DNA from: an uncultured Acidimicrobiia bacterium | GTDB lineage: Bacteria > Actinomycetota > Acidimicrobiia > IMCC26256 > JAENVU01 | Direction of reading: 5' to 3' | Assembly: GCA_963796755.1 (NCBI GenBank) | Contig: CAWCMX010000005.1 | Span: 840,805 to 904,804 of the forward strand | DNA: 64,000 bases | Shown: piece after piece, positions 49,332 through 56,649 of the stretch | Layout: every line of letters starts with the position of its first letter | Numbering within the stretch: position 1 is the first letter of the stretch | Translations under genes and position numbers: made by a program | The notes under the pieces: generated by a model | The model's input: the letters and a program-made list of their open reading frames with translations, nothing else | Told to the model about the DNA's origin: nothing | Database searches by the model: none

Positions 49332-50037
49332 GGGTCGTCTCCCTCGTACCGTCCGCAACGGAGACGCTCGTCGCGCTCGGCGTGATCCCCGTCGCGTGCA
49401 CCCGCTTCTGCGAGCAGGACGGGATCCCGACGGTCGGCGGCACCAAGGATCCGCACATCGACGAGATCGTGGCGCTCGCCCCGGACCTGGTCGTGGTCAA
49501 CGACGAGGAGAACCGGCATCGCGGACGCCGAAGCGCTGACCGTCGCGGGCCTCGAGCTCCACTCGATGTCACCGCGCTCGGTCACCGACGTCGGTCCCGC
49601 GGTCTCGGAGCTCGCCGTGCGGGTGGGCGCGACCGTCGACCCGGTCTTCGGTCGGGAACGCTGGCGGGCGTTGCTCGAGGCCGCGCGGCAGCCCCCACAC
49701 GGGCGCGTCGCCGTCCTCATCTGGCGCCGACCCTGGATGACCATGACGGCCGACACCTACGGGGCGTCGGTCCTCGCCCTGCTCGGCTGGAGAGAGCGTG
49801 GTCGGCGACGCGCCCGACCGCTATCCGGAGGATCTCACTCGGTGAGCTCGGCGCGGTCGGGCCAGGTGTCGTGCTGCTGCCCGACGAGCCGTACCCGTTC
49901 GCGGATCGCCACATCGCCGAGGTCGGCTGCTGGCGTCCCCGATGCCCGCGTTGCGCTGGTGGACGGCCAGCGACCTCTTCTGGTGGGGGATTCGCACCCC
50001 GGATGCGCTCGCGCGCCTGTCGGCGGCGGACTGGTAG
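49328..50037 (+). pseudogene. cobalamin/metal-binding 'helical backbone' (BtuF/TroA-fold) protein, about five apparent frameshifts
   Basis: GTG 49328 overlaps the previous stop. VRVVSLVPSATETLVALGVIPVACT…TVGGTKDPHIDEIVALAPDLVVVNDEEN is followed by IADAEALTVAGLELHSMSPRSVTDV…RVAVLIWRRPWMTMTADTYGASVLALLGW. Further pieces are …VVGDAPDRYPE…, …GVVLLPDEPYPFADRHIAEV…, …VPDARVALVDGQ… and DLFWWGIRTPDALARLSAADW*. These are read across all three frames. Confidence 0.65.
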
Positions 50038-50056
50038 CGGCAGTACCTTCGTAGGC

Positions 50057-51208
50057 ATGCAGCGCACCCTCTTCGACTCAGATCACGAGCTGTTCCGCGA
50101 CTCCGTGCGGGCCTTCATCGCCAAGGAGCTCGTGCCGCACTCCGAGGAATGGGAGCACGCCGGCATCGTCGACCGCGAGGTGTTCGCCAAGGCCGGCGCG
50201 CAGGGCTTCCTCGGCATCGCGGTACCCGAGGAGTACGGCGGCGGGGGAGTCGCCGGACTTCCGCTACAACGTCGTGATCGCCGAGGAGATCCAGCGCGCG
50301 GGCGTGAACGCCGCGGGCCTCGGCTGGACGCTGCACAACGACATCTGCCTGCCCTACTTCCTCACCCTGTGCACCGACGAGCAGAAGGCCCGGTGGATCC
50401 CCGGGATCTGCTCGGGCGAGCTCATCACCGCGATCGCGATGACCGAGCCCGGCATCGGGTCGGACCTCGCCTCGCATGAGCACGAGTGCGATCCTCGATG
50501 GCGACCACTACGTCGTGAACGGCTCGAAGACGTTCATCACGAACGGGATCAATGCGGACCTCGTCGTCACCGCAGTGAAGACCGACCCGACGCAACGACA
50601 CACGGGCATGAGCCTGATCGTGCTCGAGCGCGGCATGGACGGCTTCGAGCGGGGCCGCAACCTGGACAAGATCGGCCTGCACGCCCAGGACACCGCCGAG
50701 CTCTTCTTCACCGACGTGCCGTTCCCGTGGCGAACCGGCTGGGCGACGAGGGCCAGGGCTTCCTGGGTCTCGTGGACAAGCTGCCCCAGGAGCGACTCTC
50801 GATCGCGGTGACCGCAGTGGCCGCGGCCGCGCCAGGCACTCGACATCACCCTCGAGTACGTGAAGGAGCGCACCGCGTTCGGCAAGCCGATCGGGACGTT
50901 CCAGAACAGCCGGTTCCGCCTCGCCGAGATGGCCACGGAGATCGACATCGGGCAGACCTACGTCGACCGGGCGGTGCTCGCCTTGAATGACGGCGAGCTG
51001 ACGGCCGAAGAGGCCGCCATGGCGAAGTGGTGGTGCACCGAGCTGCAGAAGCGCGGTCGTCGACACGTGCCTCCAGCTGCACGGCGGCTACGGGTACATG
51101 AACGAGTACCCGATCGCCCGGGCGTACGCCGATGCCCGCATCACCACGATCTACGGGGGCACCACCGAGATCATGAAGGAGATCATCGGGAAGTCGCTCG
51201 GCGTCTGA
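50057..51208 (+). pseudogene. acyl-CoA dehydrogenase, about five apparent frameshifts (~50262, ~50470, ~50725, ~50835, ~51055)
   Basis: The pieces are: MQRTLFDSDHELFRDSVRAFIAKELVPHSEEWEHAGIVDREVFAKAG…; IAEEIQRAGVNAAGLGWTLHNDICLPYF…GELITAIAMTEPGIGSDLAS; MSTSAILDGDHYVVNGSKTFITNG…; NRLGDEGQGFLGLVDKLPQERLSIAV; EYVKERTAFGKPIGTFQNSRFRLAEMATEI…; and a hand-translated end VVDTCLQLHGGYGYMNEYPIARAYADARITTIYGGTTEIMKEIIGKSLGV*. Confidence 0.8.
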
Positions 51209-51211
51209 GGC

Positions 51212-51476
51212 CTAGTGGTCCAGGGCCTCGATGACCCAGGCGATCACGAAGCCGGAGACGACTGCCGCGACACCGCGTGATGACGATGCTGTCCGTGAGC
51301 ACGTAGGCCAGACCGCCCGGCAGGACGCACGCCACGGCCCCCAGGGCAATCGAGCCCGGGATGTTCGACAACAGGTGATGGCGGTTGGTCGTCCGCTCGT
51401 TCTTCGCGATGACCGTGAGGATTCCGAAGAACGTTCCGGCCGCGCCCGCGAGGACGATCAACACAAGAATGGCCAC
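51212..51476 (-). pseudogene. small hydrophobic membrane protein, one apparent frameshift (~51275)
   Basis: MAILVLIVLAGAAGTFFGILTVIAKNERTTNRHHLLSNIPGSIALGAVACVLPGGLAYVLTDSIVIT (51183..51476) continues by hand translation as GVAAVVSGFVIAWVIEALDH*, with the stop at 51212..51214. Confidence 0.55.
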
Positions 51477-51665: not shown

Positions 51666-52088
51666 GTGCCCGGAGCGAAAAAGCGTGGCCCCGCGAAGAT
51701 GACTGCGTCGCACAAGCAGGCGCTCGCCGAAGGACGCGAAGCATCCCGTCACGTGCGGGCGTACCTCGAGGCGTTGCAGGCCAACAAGCCCAAGCGCGGC
51801 CGCAAGCGCACCAAGGAAACCGTGCAGAAGCAGCTCGACGACGTCTCCGCACAGATCGGTCCGGCGACCGGGCTGAAGAAGCTGGAGCTCGCGCAGCGCC
51901 GCATCGACCTCGCCGCCGAGCTCGAGAACTTTGCCGTGAAGGTCGACCTCTCGGATCTCCGGCGCAACTTCATCAAGCACGCGAAGCCGTACGCGAAGCG
52001 CAAGGGCATTACCTACGGTGCGTGGCGCGAAGCGGGCGTTCCGGCGGAAGATCTCAAGGCAGCCGGCATCACGCGCGGCGCGGCCTGA
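51666..52088 (+). CDS. basic (Lys/Arg-rich) hypothetical protein
   Basis: This is the ORF as listed (GTG start). …KMTASHKQALAEGREASRHVRAYLEALQANKPKRGRKRTKETVQKQLDD…KPYAKRKGITYGAWREAGVPAEDLKAAGI. An ATG at 51626 with a strong AAGGAG upstream (MPPAKKATS…) lies in another frame, so the true N-terminus may need a frameshift near 51660. Confidence 0.6.
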   Translation: MPGAKKRGPAKMTASHKQALAEGREASRHVRAYLEALQANKPKRGRKRTKETVQKQLDDVSAQIGPATGLKKLELAQRRIDLAAELENFAVKVDLSDLRRNFIKHAKPYAKRKGITYGAWREAGVPAEDLKAAGITRGAA

Positions 52089-52103: not shown

Positions 52104-52609
52104 TTGGTTGATTGCGACGAGTGCGGGCTCGTCTATGCATCAATTCCGGTGACCGACATTCCGAATGCGCTCGGAGCATTCGGGCCGATGTACCGGGCTC
52201 GGCTCGACGCCGAGCCGGCAGTGCTCCGCGCCCGTCCGAGCCCGCAGATCTGGTCGGCGCTGGAGTACTCGTGCCATGTCCGCGACATGCTCGACGTGCA
52301 GCGGGGCCGATTGCAGCTGGCCTTGGCGGAGGATTGTCCGACGTTCGTCCCGATGGGCCGGGACGAGCGGGTCACGCGGGACCAGTACAACGGGCAGGAC
52401 CCGTTGGTGGTCGCCGACCAGCTCGCCGCCGCGGCGGTCGCGATCGGGGCCGAGTTCGCGGGCTTGCGGGCCGAGCAGTGGGAGCGGACCGCGATCTACA
52501 GCTGGCCGACCGAGAGCGAACGGTCGATGGTGTGGCTCGGGCGGCACACGATCCACGAGGGCCGTCACCATCTTCGGGACATCGACGCGGGGCTGAGCGG
52601 CGGCGCTGA
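52104..52609 (+). CDS. DinB-family protein with N-terminal CxxC; 3' end uncertain
   Basis: (TTG)VDCDECGLVYASIPVTDI…WSALEYSCHVRDMLDVQRGRL…RSMVWLGRHTIHEGRHHLRDIDAGL. As given, the frame has no stop and reads through a low-complexity linker into the sigma gene (ORF 52104..53042). The end at 52609 is the stop of a neighbouring frame and is a guess. Confidence 0.5.
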
Positions 52610-52706
52610 CCTGAGCTCATCGGGACCCGTGCCGCGCCCCGGCGGGCGGCGCCTCCGCTCGAGCCGTGCGGTAACCGGACCGGCGCGGGCAGGCTCCTCT
52701 CTGGTG

Positions 52707-54642
52707 ATGACGCTTTTCGAGGATCGGGATCGTTGGGCGGCGCTGGTCGGCGCCGCCCAACGGGGCGATGCCAGTGCCTGGCCGGAGCTCATCGACCGAT
52801 TCGAAGACATCGCGGTCGCCTCCGCCGTCGGGCTGTGCGGCGATCTGGACGAGGCGCTGGACATCGCGCAGGAAGCGTTCGTCCTGGCCTTCCGCCACAT
52901 CGCCAGCCTCCGGGACCCGGCTGCGTTCCCGGCCTGGCTCCTGCGGCTCGTCCGCACCGCGACCAACCGCCGGACCCGCCGCCGCCGGCCCACCACCGTG
53001 CCGCTCGACGCCGTACCCGCGGCGACGGTCCCGTTGCGCTGATGGACCCGGCCGCCGGGCCCGAGGAGGTCGTGCTCGCCGCCGTCGAGGCGGCCGAGGT
53101 CCGGGCCGCGGTCGAGCGCCTGCCCGAGGGCGAGCGGTGCGTGGTCGCGCTGCATCACCTGGCCGGGATGCCCTACGCGGAGGTCGCAGCCTTCCTCGGC
53201 ATCACCGTCCCTGCCGCCAAGAAGCGGGCGTGGTCCGCCCGCACCCGATTGCAGGAGCTGCTCCCCATGGTCGCCGACGCCCTCGCCGCCGCCCGCCCCT
53301 CTGGTACCGAATCGTTTCGGGACACGATCCTGCTGTTCCAGGCCCTCCGCGCCCAGGACGCCGATGGGCTGGCCCGTCTCCTGGCCCGGAACCCCTCATT
53401 GGCCACCGCCACCGAGGACTGGTCGCCGGTCGAGGGCAACGAGGCGCGGCTCGGGTTCTCGGATCGGGCGACCGCGCTGATCCGCGCGGCCGGCATCGGC
53501 GACCTCCGGCTGGTGCGCCTCCTGGTCGAGGCCGGCGCCCCGGTCGCTGACGTCGTGCCCGTGCGCGAACCACGAGAGCGCGCTGTGGGCGGCGGTCAAC
53601 ATCGGCGCGGCCGATGTCGTCGAGTACCTGCTCGATCACGGCGCCTCCGTCGACGGCGGGGCGTTCGACGGGGAGGCCACCGCCCTCCACGTCGCCGTGT
53701 ACCGCGAGCGGCACGATCTCGTGCGCCGGCTGCTGGCGGCCGGGGCCGACCCGGCGGCGACCGACGCGCACGGCCGCACCGCCGCGGACTGGGGTGTGCT
53801 GAAAGCGGCCCGCCGGTCCGAGGTGCACGACGGCGATGTCCTGTGGACCCGGATCCGGGCCCTCGACTTGTTCGCGCCGCTGCGGCGAGGGGCGCTGGTG
53901 CACATCCCGCCCGCCTACGGGCTCGGCGCGATCGTCGCCATGCTCGGCGTGGTCGACGCTCTCGCTCCCGCGCACTGGTGGATGATCGGGTTCGAGCACG
54001 GACCCTACGAGCCGGTGGAGTTGAAGCGGGACGTGCGCGAGCGTGCCATGACGGCGACGATCGACCTGATCGGGCCGGGCCATCCCGGCGACCGCCGCCG
54101 GCAGTTCGCCGACACCCTCGAGCGGCTGGCCGCGACGCCCGGCCCCAAGGTCGTCACGTGCGTGCCCGCGCCGGGGCACGAGCACGACGTCACCGTCGGC
54201 CTTCCCGGCCTCGCGGCCGACCCGTCGGTGCTGGCAACCCTCGTACTGGCGACGTACACACCCGAGCCTGCGCCGGTCCCCGAGGCGCTCCCCGAAGGCT
54301 TCGACGCCCGCATCACCTTCGACCCGGCCCGCGCCCGCGCTCGCCGCTGGCCCGCGATCGATCCGGACCGCACCAGCGTCCGGACCTACCCGGACGAGCG
54401 CCACAAGCACATCGCCCACGCCGCGCGCGCCGCCCTCGCCGACTACGCCGCGGTCGACCCCGCGTTCGCTCTCGCCGACCCGTCCGCGTTCGCCGACCCG
54501 GCTGCGGCCGAGCGGGCGCAGGCGCTCGTGCGCTACCTGGCCCACTCGTTCCGCGTGGTTCGAGCTGTTCTCCGCGCTGCCGACGGTCGAAACGCCGATG
54601 GCCGAGGTCCTCGACAGTGTCGAGGACCTGCTCGACCTCTGA
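52707..54642 (+). pseudogene. ECF sigma factor fused to ankyrin repeats and an F1-ATPase-beta-like (Walker-A-less) C-terminal domain; three apparent frameshifts (~53030, ~53550, ~54555)
   Basis: Sigma region 2: MTLFEDRDRWAALVGAAQRGDASAWPELIDRFEDIAVASAVGL…AQEAFVLAFRHI…WLLRLVRTATNR. Region 4: ERLPEGERCVVALHHLAGMPYAEVAAFLGITVPAAKKRAWSARTRL. Ankyrin: …ALIRAAGIGDLRLVRLLVEAGAP…SALWAAVNIGAADVVEYLLDHGASV…TALHVAVYRERHDLVRRLLAAGADPAATDAHGRTAADW. Then WTRIRALDLFAPLRRGALVHIPPAYGLGAIVAML…RWPAIDPDRTSVR…AERAQALVRYLAHSF…. Region 4 plus the first ankyrin repeats share one frame. The later ankyrin repeats plus the ATPase-like part share another. Confidence 0.65.
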
Positions 54643-54741
54643 GGGGGTCGAGGGACCGTCCCCGAACGCGCGGACACATCGACCTGGGGCATCGCCCTGA
54701 GGGGCCGTTGGAGGACGGGGAGAACGCTGCCTGGCGGGGCA

Positions 54742-56649
54742 CTAGGTGCGCAGGACCCGCGCGCCGTGCGCGGGGATGGTGAGCGTCGTGCCGTCGGGTG
54801 CGGTCCGGTCGGCCGCGGCGTCGGTCCAGTTGAAGAGCGCGACGACCGGCCCGCCGTCGCGCTCGGCCACCCACACGGAGGCGAGATCGTCGGGGAGGTC
54901 GTACGCGTGCTGCCGGCGGGCGTCGGCGTGGTCGAAGAGGTCGATCGGACGGAACCCGCGCTCGTCCCACGCGAGATCGAGCACGTCGGGATCTTCGAGG
55001 ACCGCCCGCTCCTCGGGGAGCAACGTCGAGAGCTGGTCGGCGAGCAGGAACGGTCCGCCCACCAGCGCGGCCACGACGGCCTGGGTGTGGGACTCCTCGA
55101 GGCGGTACCCGTCGGGGCCCCCGCGGCCGTCGCTGCCCCACGCCATCACGATCTCGGGGTCGTTCTGGAACCACCGCCCGTGCAGTGCCCACCGGCTCGC
55201 GGCCTGGCGCGCCTGTGCCTTGATGCCCTTCCAGCCGGTCCAGTCGTCGTCGAGGGGCTGGCCGTAGGCGCGCCCGAGCACGGGGACGGCGAGGTCGTGG
55301 CCGATGCGGTTGGCGTGGCAGATGCCGACCATCGGCAGCATCGGCGCGCCACACCCGAGCACGTAGACGTCCTCGCCGAGCGGATCGACGAACGCGCGGC
55401 AGGCCGCGGCGCAGCGCCTCCGTCCCGGTCACCCGCGCGTCATGGCGCCCGCCCTCCTGCGCACCGAGGTAGAGGAAGTCGAGCTTGACCATGTCGACGC
55501 CCCAGCTCCGCACCTGCGCCCCGAGGTCGCGCAGGTACTCGACGACGGCGGGGTTCGAGGCGTCGAGGGCCCAACGCCCGTGGCGGTCGCGCAGCCGTGG
55601 TGCCGCTCGCCCGGTCGATCACGCACCAGTCCTCGTGCTCGGTCCCGAGGCCCGGTGCACCCGGCTCGACCATGAAGGGCGCCAGCCAGAGCCCGCACCG
55701 CTGGTCGAGGCGATGGATCTCCTCGACCAGCTCGCCGAAGTCGTCGGGGAACCGCTCGCGGGGCCACCACGCCCCGTTGGCCTCCTGCCAGCCGTCGTCG
55801 ATCTGGAGCAGGTCGAAGCCCGGTCGATGGCCGAACCGCTCGCGCAGCAGCTGCGCGTTCTCGAGCAGGCGGCCGGTGCTGATCCGGGTCGCGTAGTGGT
55901 ACCAGGACTCCCAGCCGAGGGCCGGTGGCCCGGCCCACGGGCGGCGCGGCGTCAGCGCCGCGACGGCCTCGGTCACCGCGAGCGGGTCGGGCCCGGCACT
56001 GATCGCGATCGACTCCGACGCGATCTCGTCCCCCGCCGCCACGGGCCGGGTCGCCGTCGCCACCTGCATCTCGTGGCCCCAGCTGCCGTCGACGAGATGA
56101 TGCGTCGGCGCGGGCTCGGCGTGGACGATCAGCTCGTTGCCAGTGCGGTTGACGCGGGTGACGAGCTGCTCGCAGGTGAGCGCTTGGATCGCGAGTGCGC
56201 CCGACGCGGTCGTGACCGTCGAGCTCCAGTACGAGTCCGTCGCTGTCCGGGTCCGCGCGCGCACGCCGGCGTACGACCACGAGTCGTACCCGTTCACCAG
56301 CTGCCGGTCGAGGTCCGGGGTCACGACGCCGGCGAGGCGGGATGACACTGCGCACGCGGTCGTCGCGTTCGGGCCGGTATCCCGCTTGCACCTCGAGGAT
56401 GTCGCCGTCCGCCGGGAGCCGGAGCTCGAGCCACGCGGTGCCGTCGGTGAGGGTCCAGCGGGCCCGGGCGCCGGTGCGCGTCGTCTCGACGTGCCAGACG
56501 CCGCGGGCCCGGCTCGGGGTTCCAGGCGTCCGATTCGACGCGCATGCGCACACGGCCCGAGGGTCACCGCGGCACTGCGTCCAGCGTGCGGTCCAGGTTC
56601 CCGATCCGAGCTCGAGCCGGACCGCGCCGTTGCCCAGGGTTCGGCTCAT
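54742..56649 (-). pseudogene. alpha-galactosidase (clan GH-D, GH36-like), at least three apparent frameshifts (~56340, ~55620, ~55390; probably two more near 56500-56545)
   Basis: The pieces are: MSRTLGNGAVRLELGSGTW…WLELRLPADGDILEVQAGY (55429..56649); …LGWESWYHYATRI…LLQIDDGWQ…WLAPFMV (55440..56567); …VRSWGVDMVKLDFLYLGA (54533..55513); and …LGCGAPMLPMVG…WFQNDPEIVM…VALFNW… (54742..55362). Confidence 0.75.

Follow-up and report, generated by a model that had tools for sequence, protein, structure and literature searches.

An ECF sigma factor gene with an ankyrin and degenerate F1-ATPase β-like extension in an uncultured Acidimicrobiia bacterium

Reading frame of the sigma–ankyrin–β gene

We analysed a 64-kb stretch of DNA (the window; G+C about 73%) from an uncultured Acidimicrobiia bacterium, for which an earlier reading of the sequence letters had proposed a gene joining an extracytoplasmic function (ECF) sigma factor to ankyrin repeats and a domain resembling the β subunit of ATP synthase. 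We found that this locus encodes one 644-residue ECF (group IV) sigma factor with a C-terminal extension of 455 residues, in which an ankyrin (ANK) block is rigidly joined to a β-like domain lacking the catalytic motifs of F1-ATPase. As assembled, the gene contains three changes of reading frame. Its modules and interruptions are listed in Table 1.

Pfam analysis of the three-frame translation of positions 52500–54900 distributed the modules over all three frames. Frame 0, read from the ATG at 52707, contained Sigma70_r2, and frame 2 contained Sigma70_r4_2 from about 53040 onward and stayed free of stop codons via ...RLQELLPMVADALAAARPS... to the first ankyrin repeat. Frame 0 resumed at about 53556 with Ank (E = 2.4e-11, 43.7 bits) and Ank_2 (E = 2.2e-10, 41.4 bits) matches, followed by approximately 250 residues to which Pfam gave no name, and the final 27 residues lay in frame 1 from about 54560 to the stop codon. 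Thus, both regions of the proposed complete ECF sigma factor were recovered, and region 4 ran into the ankyrin repeats in the same frame, as had been claimed. The periodicity of G+C content at third codon positions (GC3), analysed with a frame-aware Viterbi segmentation, placed the frame changes at 53037, 53568 and 54559. Because these switch points match the domain frames, the coding signal follows the path taken in the sequence-only reading.

That reading had cautioned that a single polypeptide depended on the frame switches being sequence errors, and comparison with related loci (denoted by L numbers) bore this out. We identified 25 such loci in GTDB species representatives, all of them in metagenome-assembled genomes (MAGs), of which 24 are named as Acidimicrobiia, Acidimicrobiales, Ilumatobacteraceae or, more broadly, Actinomycetes or Actinomycetota. 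Fourteen related loci contain one uninterrupted frame of 642–662 residues, running from MTLxEDRDRW to the stop codon with no stop or restart between modules, and 10 of these frames are exactly 644 residues long. Most of the intact loci are short-read megahit assemblies (for example L006, L007, L008, L010, L012, L013 and L019–L022). Alignment of the window gene with the intact relatives L010, L008, L011 and L006 revealed exactly three gaps of 1 nt each, and repair of the three indels yielded a 644-residue protein without a stop codon, sharing 91% identity with its L010 and L013 counterparts.

Indels are spread over the whole assembly. GC3 segmentation detected 68 same-strand frame switches in the 64 kb, and comparison with L028, the only syntenic relative, revealed 49 indels of a length not divisible by three in 13.4 kb, so that every interpretation of the window based on open reading frames (ORFs) needs frame repair. 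From these alignments we conclude that each of the three frame switches is a 1-nt error in an assembly rich in indels and, given the intact frames in 14 relatives, that the single polypeptide is real. Elsewhere in the window, a Melibiase-like gene (54727–56518, minus strand) and an acyl-CoA dehydrogenase gene (49925–51231, plus strand) were each split over three or four frames, with their Pfam domains truncated at the switches.

It is very unlikely that the gene is truly broken in the source organism, whether as a recent pseudogene with genuine frameshifts or as separate sigma and ANK–β fragments. The indels do stand in the sole sequence for this organism, and numerous database copies are likewise fragmentary. 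However, the fragmentary copies, often from 'MFD' or other long-read bins, break at positions that differ from those in the window, whereas the short-read MAGs hold intact frames. Moreover, similar indels occur in all window genes at roughly one per 300–600 bp, codon periodicity continues undisturbed, and after repair the frame is open throughout. Programmed frameshifting was ruled out because break positions vary among loci and intact frames exist. Separate sigma and ANK–β genes, suggested by many database proteins of 456–463 residues that begin with MVADAL, were also ruled out, as contigs L003 and L004 begin inside sigma region 4, in frame. One locus with a discordant name, L024, is a 3.5-kb contig (CAZLEC010000554.1) that shares 92% identity with the window gene and lies in an 'uncultured Burkholderiales' MAG; it is probably a mis-binned Acidimicrobiia contig.

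Table 1. Positions of the gene, its modules, its upstream element and the assembly indels in the window
Feature	Position	Strand	Remarks
ECF sigma–ANK–pseudo-β gene, 644/645 residues	52704..54642	+	As assembled, with three 1-nt indels; stop codon TGA 54640–54642
Sigma region 2, residues 29–94	52791..52988	+	PF04542, E = 1.2e-9; dN/dS 0.16
Sigma region 4, residues 131–184	53096..53257	+	PF08281, E = 6e-11; continuous with ...RLQELLPMVADAL...
Ankyrin block, residues ~200–366: N-cap, three canonical repeats, C-cap	53303..53804	+	Ank_2 in intact orthologue, E = 3.5e-20; AlphaFold2 helix pairs and DARPin Foldseek matches agree
CxC motif (CPC), loop of ankyrin repeat 3	53556..53564	+	In the clade, C284 nearly invariant and C286 invariant
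F1-ATPase-β-like domain, residues 369–644: nucleotide-binding fold and C-terminal helical domain, no N-terminal crown	53811..54639	+	PDB profile search, Foldseek; dN/dS 0.26
Degenerate P-loop PPAYGLGA in place of GGAGVGKT	53907..53930	+	HMMER alignment to β; PPAYG.G invariant in the clade
WPAIDP, aligned with YPAVDP of β	54348..54365	+	HMMER; kept across the wider family
Promoter-like bipartite element GGTAACC-N15-GGCTCCTCTC	52670..52701	+	Ends 2 nt before GTG 52704 / ATG 52707; no Shine-Dalgarno sequence
Indel 1, one base missing, in disordered sigma2–sigma4 linker; frame 0 to 2	53013..53025	+	Aligned to L006, L008, L010, L011 and L013; at 53017 against L028
Indel 2, one extra base; frame 2 to 0	53553..53556	+	Intact relatives and L028
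Indel 3, one extra base (TT for T); frame 0 to 1	54555..54561	+	Intact relatives and L028

The sigma core and the β-like tail

Sigma regions 2 and 4, the combination that characterizes the ECF (group IV) family, were found with the same Pfam matches in an intact orthologue, whereas regions 1.1 and 3 were absent, no other sigma Pfam domain being detected. AlphaFold2 modelling predicted a disordered linker of about 20–25 residues between sigma2 and sigma4. The sigma core of L010 scored 53.7 bits against TIGR02937 (sigma70-ECF; cut-off 42.9) and reached no equivalog or subfamily cut-off in NCBIfam. The ankyrin families were the only Pfam matches in the extension, where the SnoaL-like, TPR, Cys-rich and DUF1835 domains and the transmembrane helices of ECF41, ECF42, ECF56, ECF238, ECF264 and other groups were not found. 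The ankyrin scores were above the Pfam thresholds in the window and in L010 (Ank_2, 72.8 bits), and the window protein contains four to five repeats. The ratio of nonsynonymous to synonymous substitution rates (dN/dS) was low in sigma2 (0.16), sigma4 (0.17), the ANK block (0.21) and the β-like tail (0.26), and higher in the sigma2–sigma4 linker (0.64). By this measure all structured modules are under purifying selection, indicating that they are functional and not decaying.

Recognition of the tail required a profile, because single-sequence matches to β families were below threshold. The tail of the window clade scored 11.6 bits against PF00006 (gathering score 29.5) and 16.3 bits (E = 3e-3) against NCBIfam atpD (TIGR01039; cut-off 462.85), so the clade reaches neither curated threshold. 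We therefore built a tail profile from 12 intact family members and searched it against all PDB sequences. The top 58 matches were all ATP synthase β subunits (E = 1.9e-19 to 1.5e-9), followed by type III secretion ATPases (E = 1.6e-7). Two stretches were aligned: the P-loop segment (profile 4–62 with β 138–193), and the end of the nucleotide-binding domain together with the C-terminal helical domain (profile 155–275 with β 326–452). The matches to β that had been drawn by eye, namely the P-loop region, WPAIDP with YPAVDP and RYLAHSF with RFLSQPF, were reproduced by the HMMER alignments. The ankyrin frame thus continues, as proposed, into approximately 275 residues homologous to the nucleotide-binding and C-terminal domains of F1-β.

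Structure predictions for relatives (family representatives are denoted by P numbers) gave the same assignment for the region after about 53820. The AlphaFold2 model of P0004, which comprises the ANK block and a tail 78% identical to that of the window, had a mean predicted local distance difference test score (pLDDT) of 79.8 and a predicted template modelling score (pTM) of 0.75. In the PDB, the best Foldseek matches of this model were F1 β subunits (probability 1.0 and E about 1e-8 over some 320 aligned columns), and its ankyrin part matched DARPins with target template modelling scores of 0.77–0.83. Full-length P0053 (645 residues, 62% identical to the repaired window protein) was modelled from 45 diverse sequences with pLDDT 89.0 and pTM 0.72. 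This model consists of sigma2 helices (2–96), a disordered linker (97–117), sigma4 (121–187), a low-confidence hinge (191–200), the ANK block (204–370) and the β-like domain (380–645). From the profile alignments and predicted folds we conclude that the tail is a true homologue of F1-β.

Although its fold is that of β, the tail departs from AtpD at the catalytic positions. The replacement of the Walker A sequence GGAGVGKT by PPAYGLGA, already pointed out in the sequence-only reading, was seen at the aligned positions, with Ala and Ile at the Lys and Thr positions in the window protein and Ala and Met in most relatives. The catalytic Glu–Arg pair of GERTREG is lost in the window clade, which has FEHGPYE there, and the Walker B strand LLFID has become VVTCVPAPG, without the Asp. 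Consequently, neither GxxxxGK[ST] nor hhhhD is present: the aligned sequences are PPAYGLGAI and VVTCVPAPG. The crown domain is also absent, as the alignment begins at about β residue 135, and the ankyrin block occupies its place. The window protein further differs from AtpD in being fused to a sigma factor and encoded outside an atp operon, whereas the two share homologous nucleotide-binding and C-terminal helical domains and the motifs TG(I/L)(K/R)A(I/V)DL(F/L)AP, (W/Y)PA(I/V)DP and R(Y/F)L.Q/H.F. Since the Walker A Lys and Thr and the Walker B Asp are lost, the aligned sequence fits a non-catalytic pseudo-ATPase. The replaced loop does not appear to be decaying, because PPAYG.G is invariant in the clade and the domain has a low dN/dS value.

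A family of sigma–β fusions

Searches for the sigma–ANK–ATP-synt_ab architecture revealed a large family. The tail profile retrieved 816 proteins at E ≤ 1e-3, 241 of them at E ≤ 1e-10, from 1.84 billion representative sequences (HMMER). Dozens of the matches are 580–750 residues long with the tail at the C terminus, and their sequences all start with the ECF sigma core. A profile search of a 5.8-billion-protein collection yielded at least 476 clusters at E ≤ 1e-40, more than 120 of which are essentially full-length. In the databases these proteins carry only the generic labels 'sigma-70 family RNA polymerase sigma factor' and 'ECF subfamily'. Where a source is named, it is an Acidimicrobiia, Acidimicrobiales, Ilumatobacteraceae or Candidatus Dormibacteraeota MAG, other members being of unstated origin, and no cultured organism was among the named matches listed in the 5.8-billion-protein search.

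Ten distant representatives contained Sigma70_r2, Sigma70_r4_2, Ank and ATP-synt_ab according to Pfam, and ATP-synt_ab (PF00006) exceeded its gathering score in P0133, P0153, P0162, P0173 and P0193. NCBIfam atpD matched P0194 (E = 1.7e-78), P0193 (E = 7e-76) and P0153 (E = 2.5e-44). In P0194/P0200 (L063, 8001–9638), which is 545 residues long, the ECF sigma factor leads directly, with no ankyrin repeats, into an almost canonical AtpD. P0193 (L064, 2956–5205; 749 residues) has both an ANK block and a longer β part. Relatives of these two types are probable early stages of the fusion. P0194 (sigma–β), P0193 and P0153 (both sigma–ANK–β) have the same ECF core and module order as the window protein, and P0193 and P0200, the latter from the P0194 cluster, also share the upstream motif, in the form GGTAWCC-N15-GGGAC. 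In contrast, these more canonical members keep much more of AtpD (E = 1e-44 to 1e-78), sometimes including GVGK and Walker B, lack CxC and have a predicted mRNA leader of 35–45 nt, whereas the mRNA of the window clade would be leaderless.

We compared motif states in 45 family representatives. GK[ST] occurred in none of them; 4 have GVGK followed by a hydrophobic residue, 7 have GxGR and the remainder have no basic residue at this position. The Walker B Asp is kept in 4 of the 45. The family can thus be arranged as a series with near-canonical AtpD fusions at one end and the fully degenerate window clade at the other. It is extremely unlikely that the β-like domain is a still active ATPase remodelling the sigma factor or RNA polymerase: a few distant members do keep GVGK and the Walker B Asp, but the window clade has lost the Walker A Lys and Thr, the Walker B Asp and the catalytic pair of GERTREG, and GK[ST] is missing from the family altogether. 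Of the 45 representatives, 36 have the CxC motif of the ankyrin repeat 3 loop, and the other nine, which make up the more AtpD-like subgroup, lack it. The motif may serve as a redox or metal site.

Upstream element, genomic setting and proposed regulation

Inspection of the region upstream of the gene revealed the sequence GGTAACC-N15-GGCTC(C)TCTC-N2-3-(G/A)TGATG, present once and with the same spacing in all 27 loci that include the 5′ end. The spacer is constant in length and variable in sequence, and no Shine-Dalgarno sequence was found. The chance expectation of this motif in the window is 0.03. A similar motif lies 34–72 nt before the start of very distant homologues, whose DNA has a G+C content of 54–69%. 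Four of five such homologues match the relaxed pattern GGTAWCC-N15-GG(G/C)(A/T)C, as GGTA(A/T)CC-N15-GGGAC or GGGTC, and the fifth (L066) has a close variant outside it, GGTAACC-N14/15-GGATCC. Because the bipartite element travels with the gene over such distances, GGTAACC-N15-GGCTC is most likely the gene's own ECF-type promoter, recognized by its sigma factor and probably autoregulated. Since the element ends 2 nt before the start codon and no Shine-Dalgarno sequence is present, the arrangement suggests that the mRNA is leaderless in the Acidimicrobiia clade. Upstream of the motif, a conserved block of about 45 nt (CATCGGGACCCG...CGGCCGGTCGGGCGGCGCCTCC, window 52618–52662) is also present in L007, L008, L013, L017, L025, L028 and L029, and contains an inverted repeat (CCGACC...GGTCGG) in several of them. 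The block may serve as an operator or may terminate transcription of the upstream gene.

Examination of the gene neighbourhoods identified no conserved partner: no neighbour gene was common to the loci, and no anti-sigma, α-like or atp gene was found near the gene in the loci examined, distant members included. The distant members are monocistronic with unrelated neighbours. Anti-sigma factors are typically missing from ECF groups whose regulation depends on a C-terminal extension (PMC7826278, PMC8999054). The window protein resembles these groups in its sigma2–sigma4 core without sigma3, its long C-terminal extension and the absence of a co-encoded anti-sigma factor, and its repeat-type interaction module, made of ANK instead of TPR or WD40 repeats, and its CxC motif are reminiscent of ECF42, ECF57 and CorE. 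It differs from them in the size of the extension and in its combination of ankyrin repeats with an F1-β-derived pseudo-ATPase domain. Neither an ankyrin nor an F1-β extension is among the extension types in the main text of the reference classification (PMC7826278) or in a 2022 review of non-canonical ECF sigma factors (PMC8999054). In the searchable full-text literature, which does not include the supplementary tables of the classification, no paper was found on ECF sigma factors that have an ankyrin or ATP-synthase-like extension. Within that scope the proposal that no known ECF group has this combination holds, though the proteins are numerous in databases under their generic sigma-70 names. 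The protein thus appears to have a new type of regulatory extension for an ECF sigma factor, although it may already belong to an uncharacterized ECF Hub group.

So far, every newly recognized kind of regulatory extension has brought to light a new way of gating transcription. Here the pseudo-enzyme extension offers an evolutionary series that begins near canonical AtpD and ends in a dead P-loop, in several hundred sequence clusters from abundant uncultured soil Actinomycetota and Dormibacterota, and with a ready-made probable cognate promoter usable for reporter assays. It becomes testable whether the F1-β fold has been reused as a ligand sensor, whether transcription is coupled to energy state in these uncultured lineages and whether the sigma–promoter pair can serve as an orthogonal switch. 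A practical point is that current annotation misses the β-like domain and that long-read MAGs fragment the gene.

The explanation that we favour, and hold to be fairly probable as a whole, is a single ECF sigma–ANK–pseudo-β protein that is expressed from its own promoter and whose extension acts in cis as a sensor or regulator. In this model the gene would be a stand-alone unit transcribed from the conserved GGTAACC-N15-GGCTC promoter, and the sigma factor would recognize this promoter, resulting in positive autoregulation. As no anti-sigma factor is co-encoded, the ANK–pseudo-β module would take over that role as a regulatory or sensory part acting in cis, keeping sigma2 and sigma4 inactive or active until a signal, either a ligand or a partner, arrives. 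Candidate signal sites are the CxC of ankyrin repeat 3 and the invariant remodelled nucleotide pocket formed by the PPAYGLG loop and the aromatic residue of WPAIDP, which we take to correspond to the Tyr of F1-β that stacks on adenine. The module would bind its ligand without hydrolysis. Gating of sigma activity by the tail is plausible by analogy with known extension-regulated ECF groups, given the lack of an anti-sigma neighbour and the purifying selection on all modules.

Several points weigh against this explanation. Contact between the extension and sigma2 or sigma4 is hypothetical, the sigma4–ANK hinge of the P0053 model is of low confidence, and the pTM of this model can be explained by the rigid ANK–β body alone. 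The Pro-Pro with which the P-loop begins may prevent it from binding phosphate. A second copy of the motif, which would mark a regulon member, was not found in the window, in the loci examined or, chance matches aside, in a metagenome scan, so that the case for autoregulation is one of conservation only. Finally, the source organism is represented by one assembly, and the gene may be a real pseudogene there.

A more specific version, possible but unlikely, is that the ANK–pseudo-β module is a dedicated, ATP-synthase-derived sensor of adenine-nucleotide or energy status or of F1 assembly, perhaps with redox or metal input through CxC, and that it steers promoter selection by the fused sigma factor. 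If true, this would be a one-protein link of bioenergetics to transcription initiation and a new ECF group. Alternatively, the tail could be a targeting or partner module, a β mimic that docks on the α subunit or other F1 parts of ATP synthase or that oligomerizes. In this way it could localize or sequester the sigma factor and tie transcription to the assembly or energy state of ATP synthase. The domain does derive from a bona fide AtpD, ANK repeats are protein–protein interaction modules, and an acidic loop, presumably equivalent to the DELSEED position of β, is partly kept in the HMMER alignment. However, the crown domain that holds α3β3 together is absent and the loci examined have no α-like or atp genes near the gene, and we consider docking quite unlikely.

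That the gene is instead the cargo of a mobile or defence-type cassette, and not a housekeeping stress regulator, seems improbable, although the distribution of similarity gives this idea some basis. When window positions 52618–54645 were compared with L006–L030, nucleotide identity within the gene reached 94.7% between species while the flanks were unrelated, and the gene behaves as a discrete unit; in 24 of the 25 loci similarity ended 40–90 nt upstream of the start codon and, on the other side, at the stop codon or just past it. Two MAGs have two copies each (L009 and L017; L007 and L016). An integrase and PemK are encoded upstream of the gene in L002, and an IS110 transposase is encoded downstream of it in L005. 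On the other hand, PADLOC returned only ANK-region matches (PDC-M72A, Ankyrin, MzaA), searches of IMG/VR viral contigs and PLSDB plasmids yielded no relatives, and no terminal repeats, att sites or consistently linked recombinase were identified. Membership of a known anti-phage defence system in PADLOC, MzaA included, was not supported, there being no significant match beyond the generic ankyrin part.

In the window the gene has DinB and Melibiase genes as neighbours and no atp operon. In frame 0, no stop codon separates the upstream DinB_2-family gene (PF12867, E = 3e-11; 52104–52703) from the sigma gene. Because L028 has a TGA just past the equivalent of window position 52595 and the window has indels at 52599 and 52626 relative to L028, this apparent read-through is probably an indel artefact. 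Between the acyl-CoA dehydrogenase and DinB genes, an ORF on the plus strand (51666–52088) without a Pfam match encodes a lysine- and arginine-rich product of 140 residues, in a segment where the G+C content is 63–65%.

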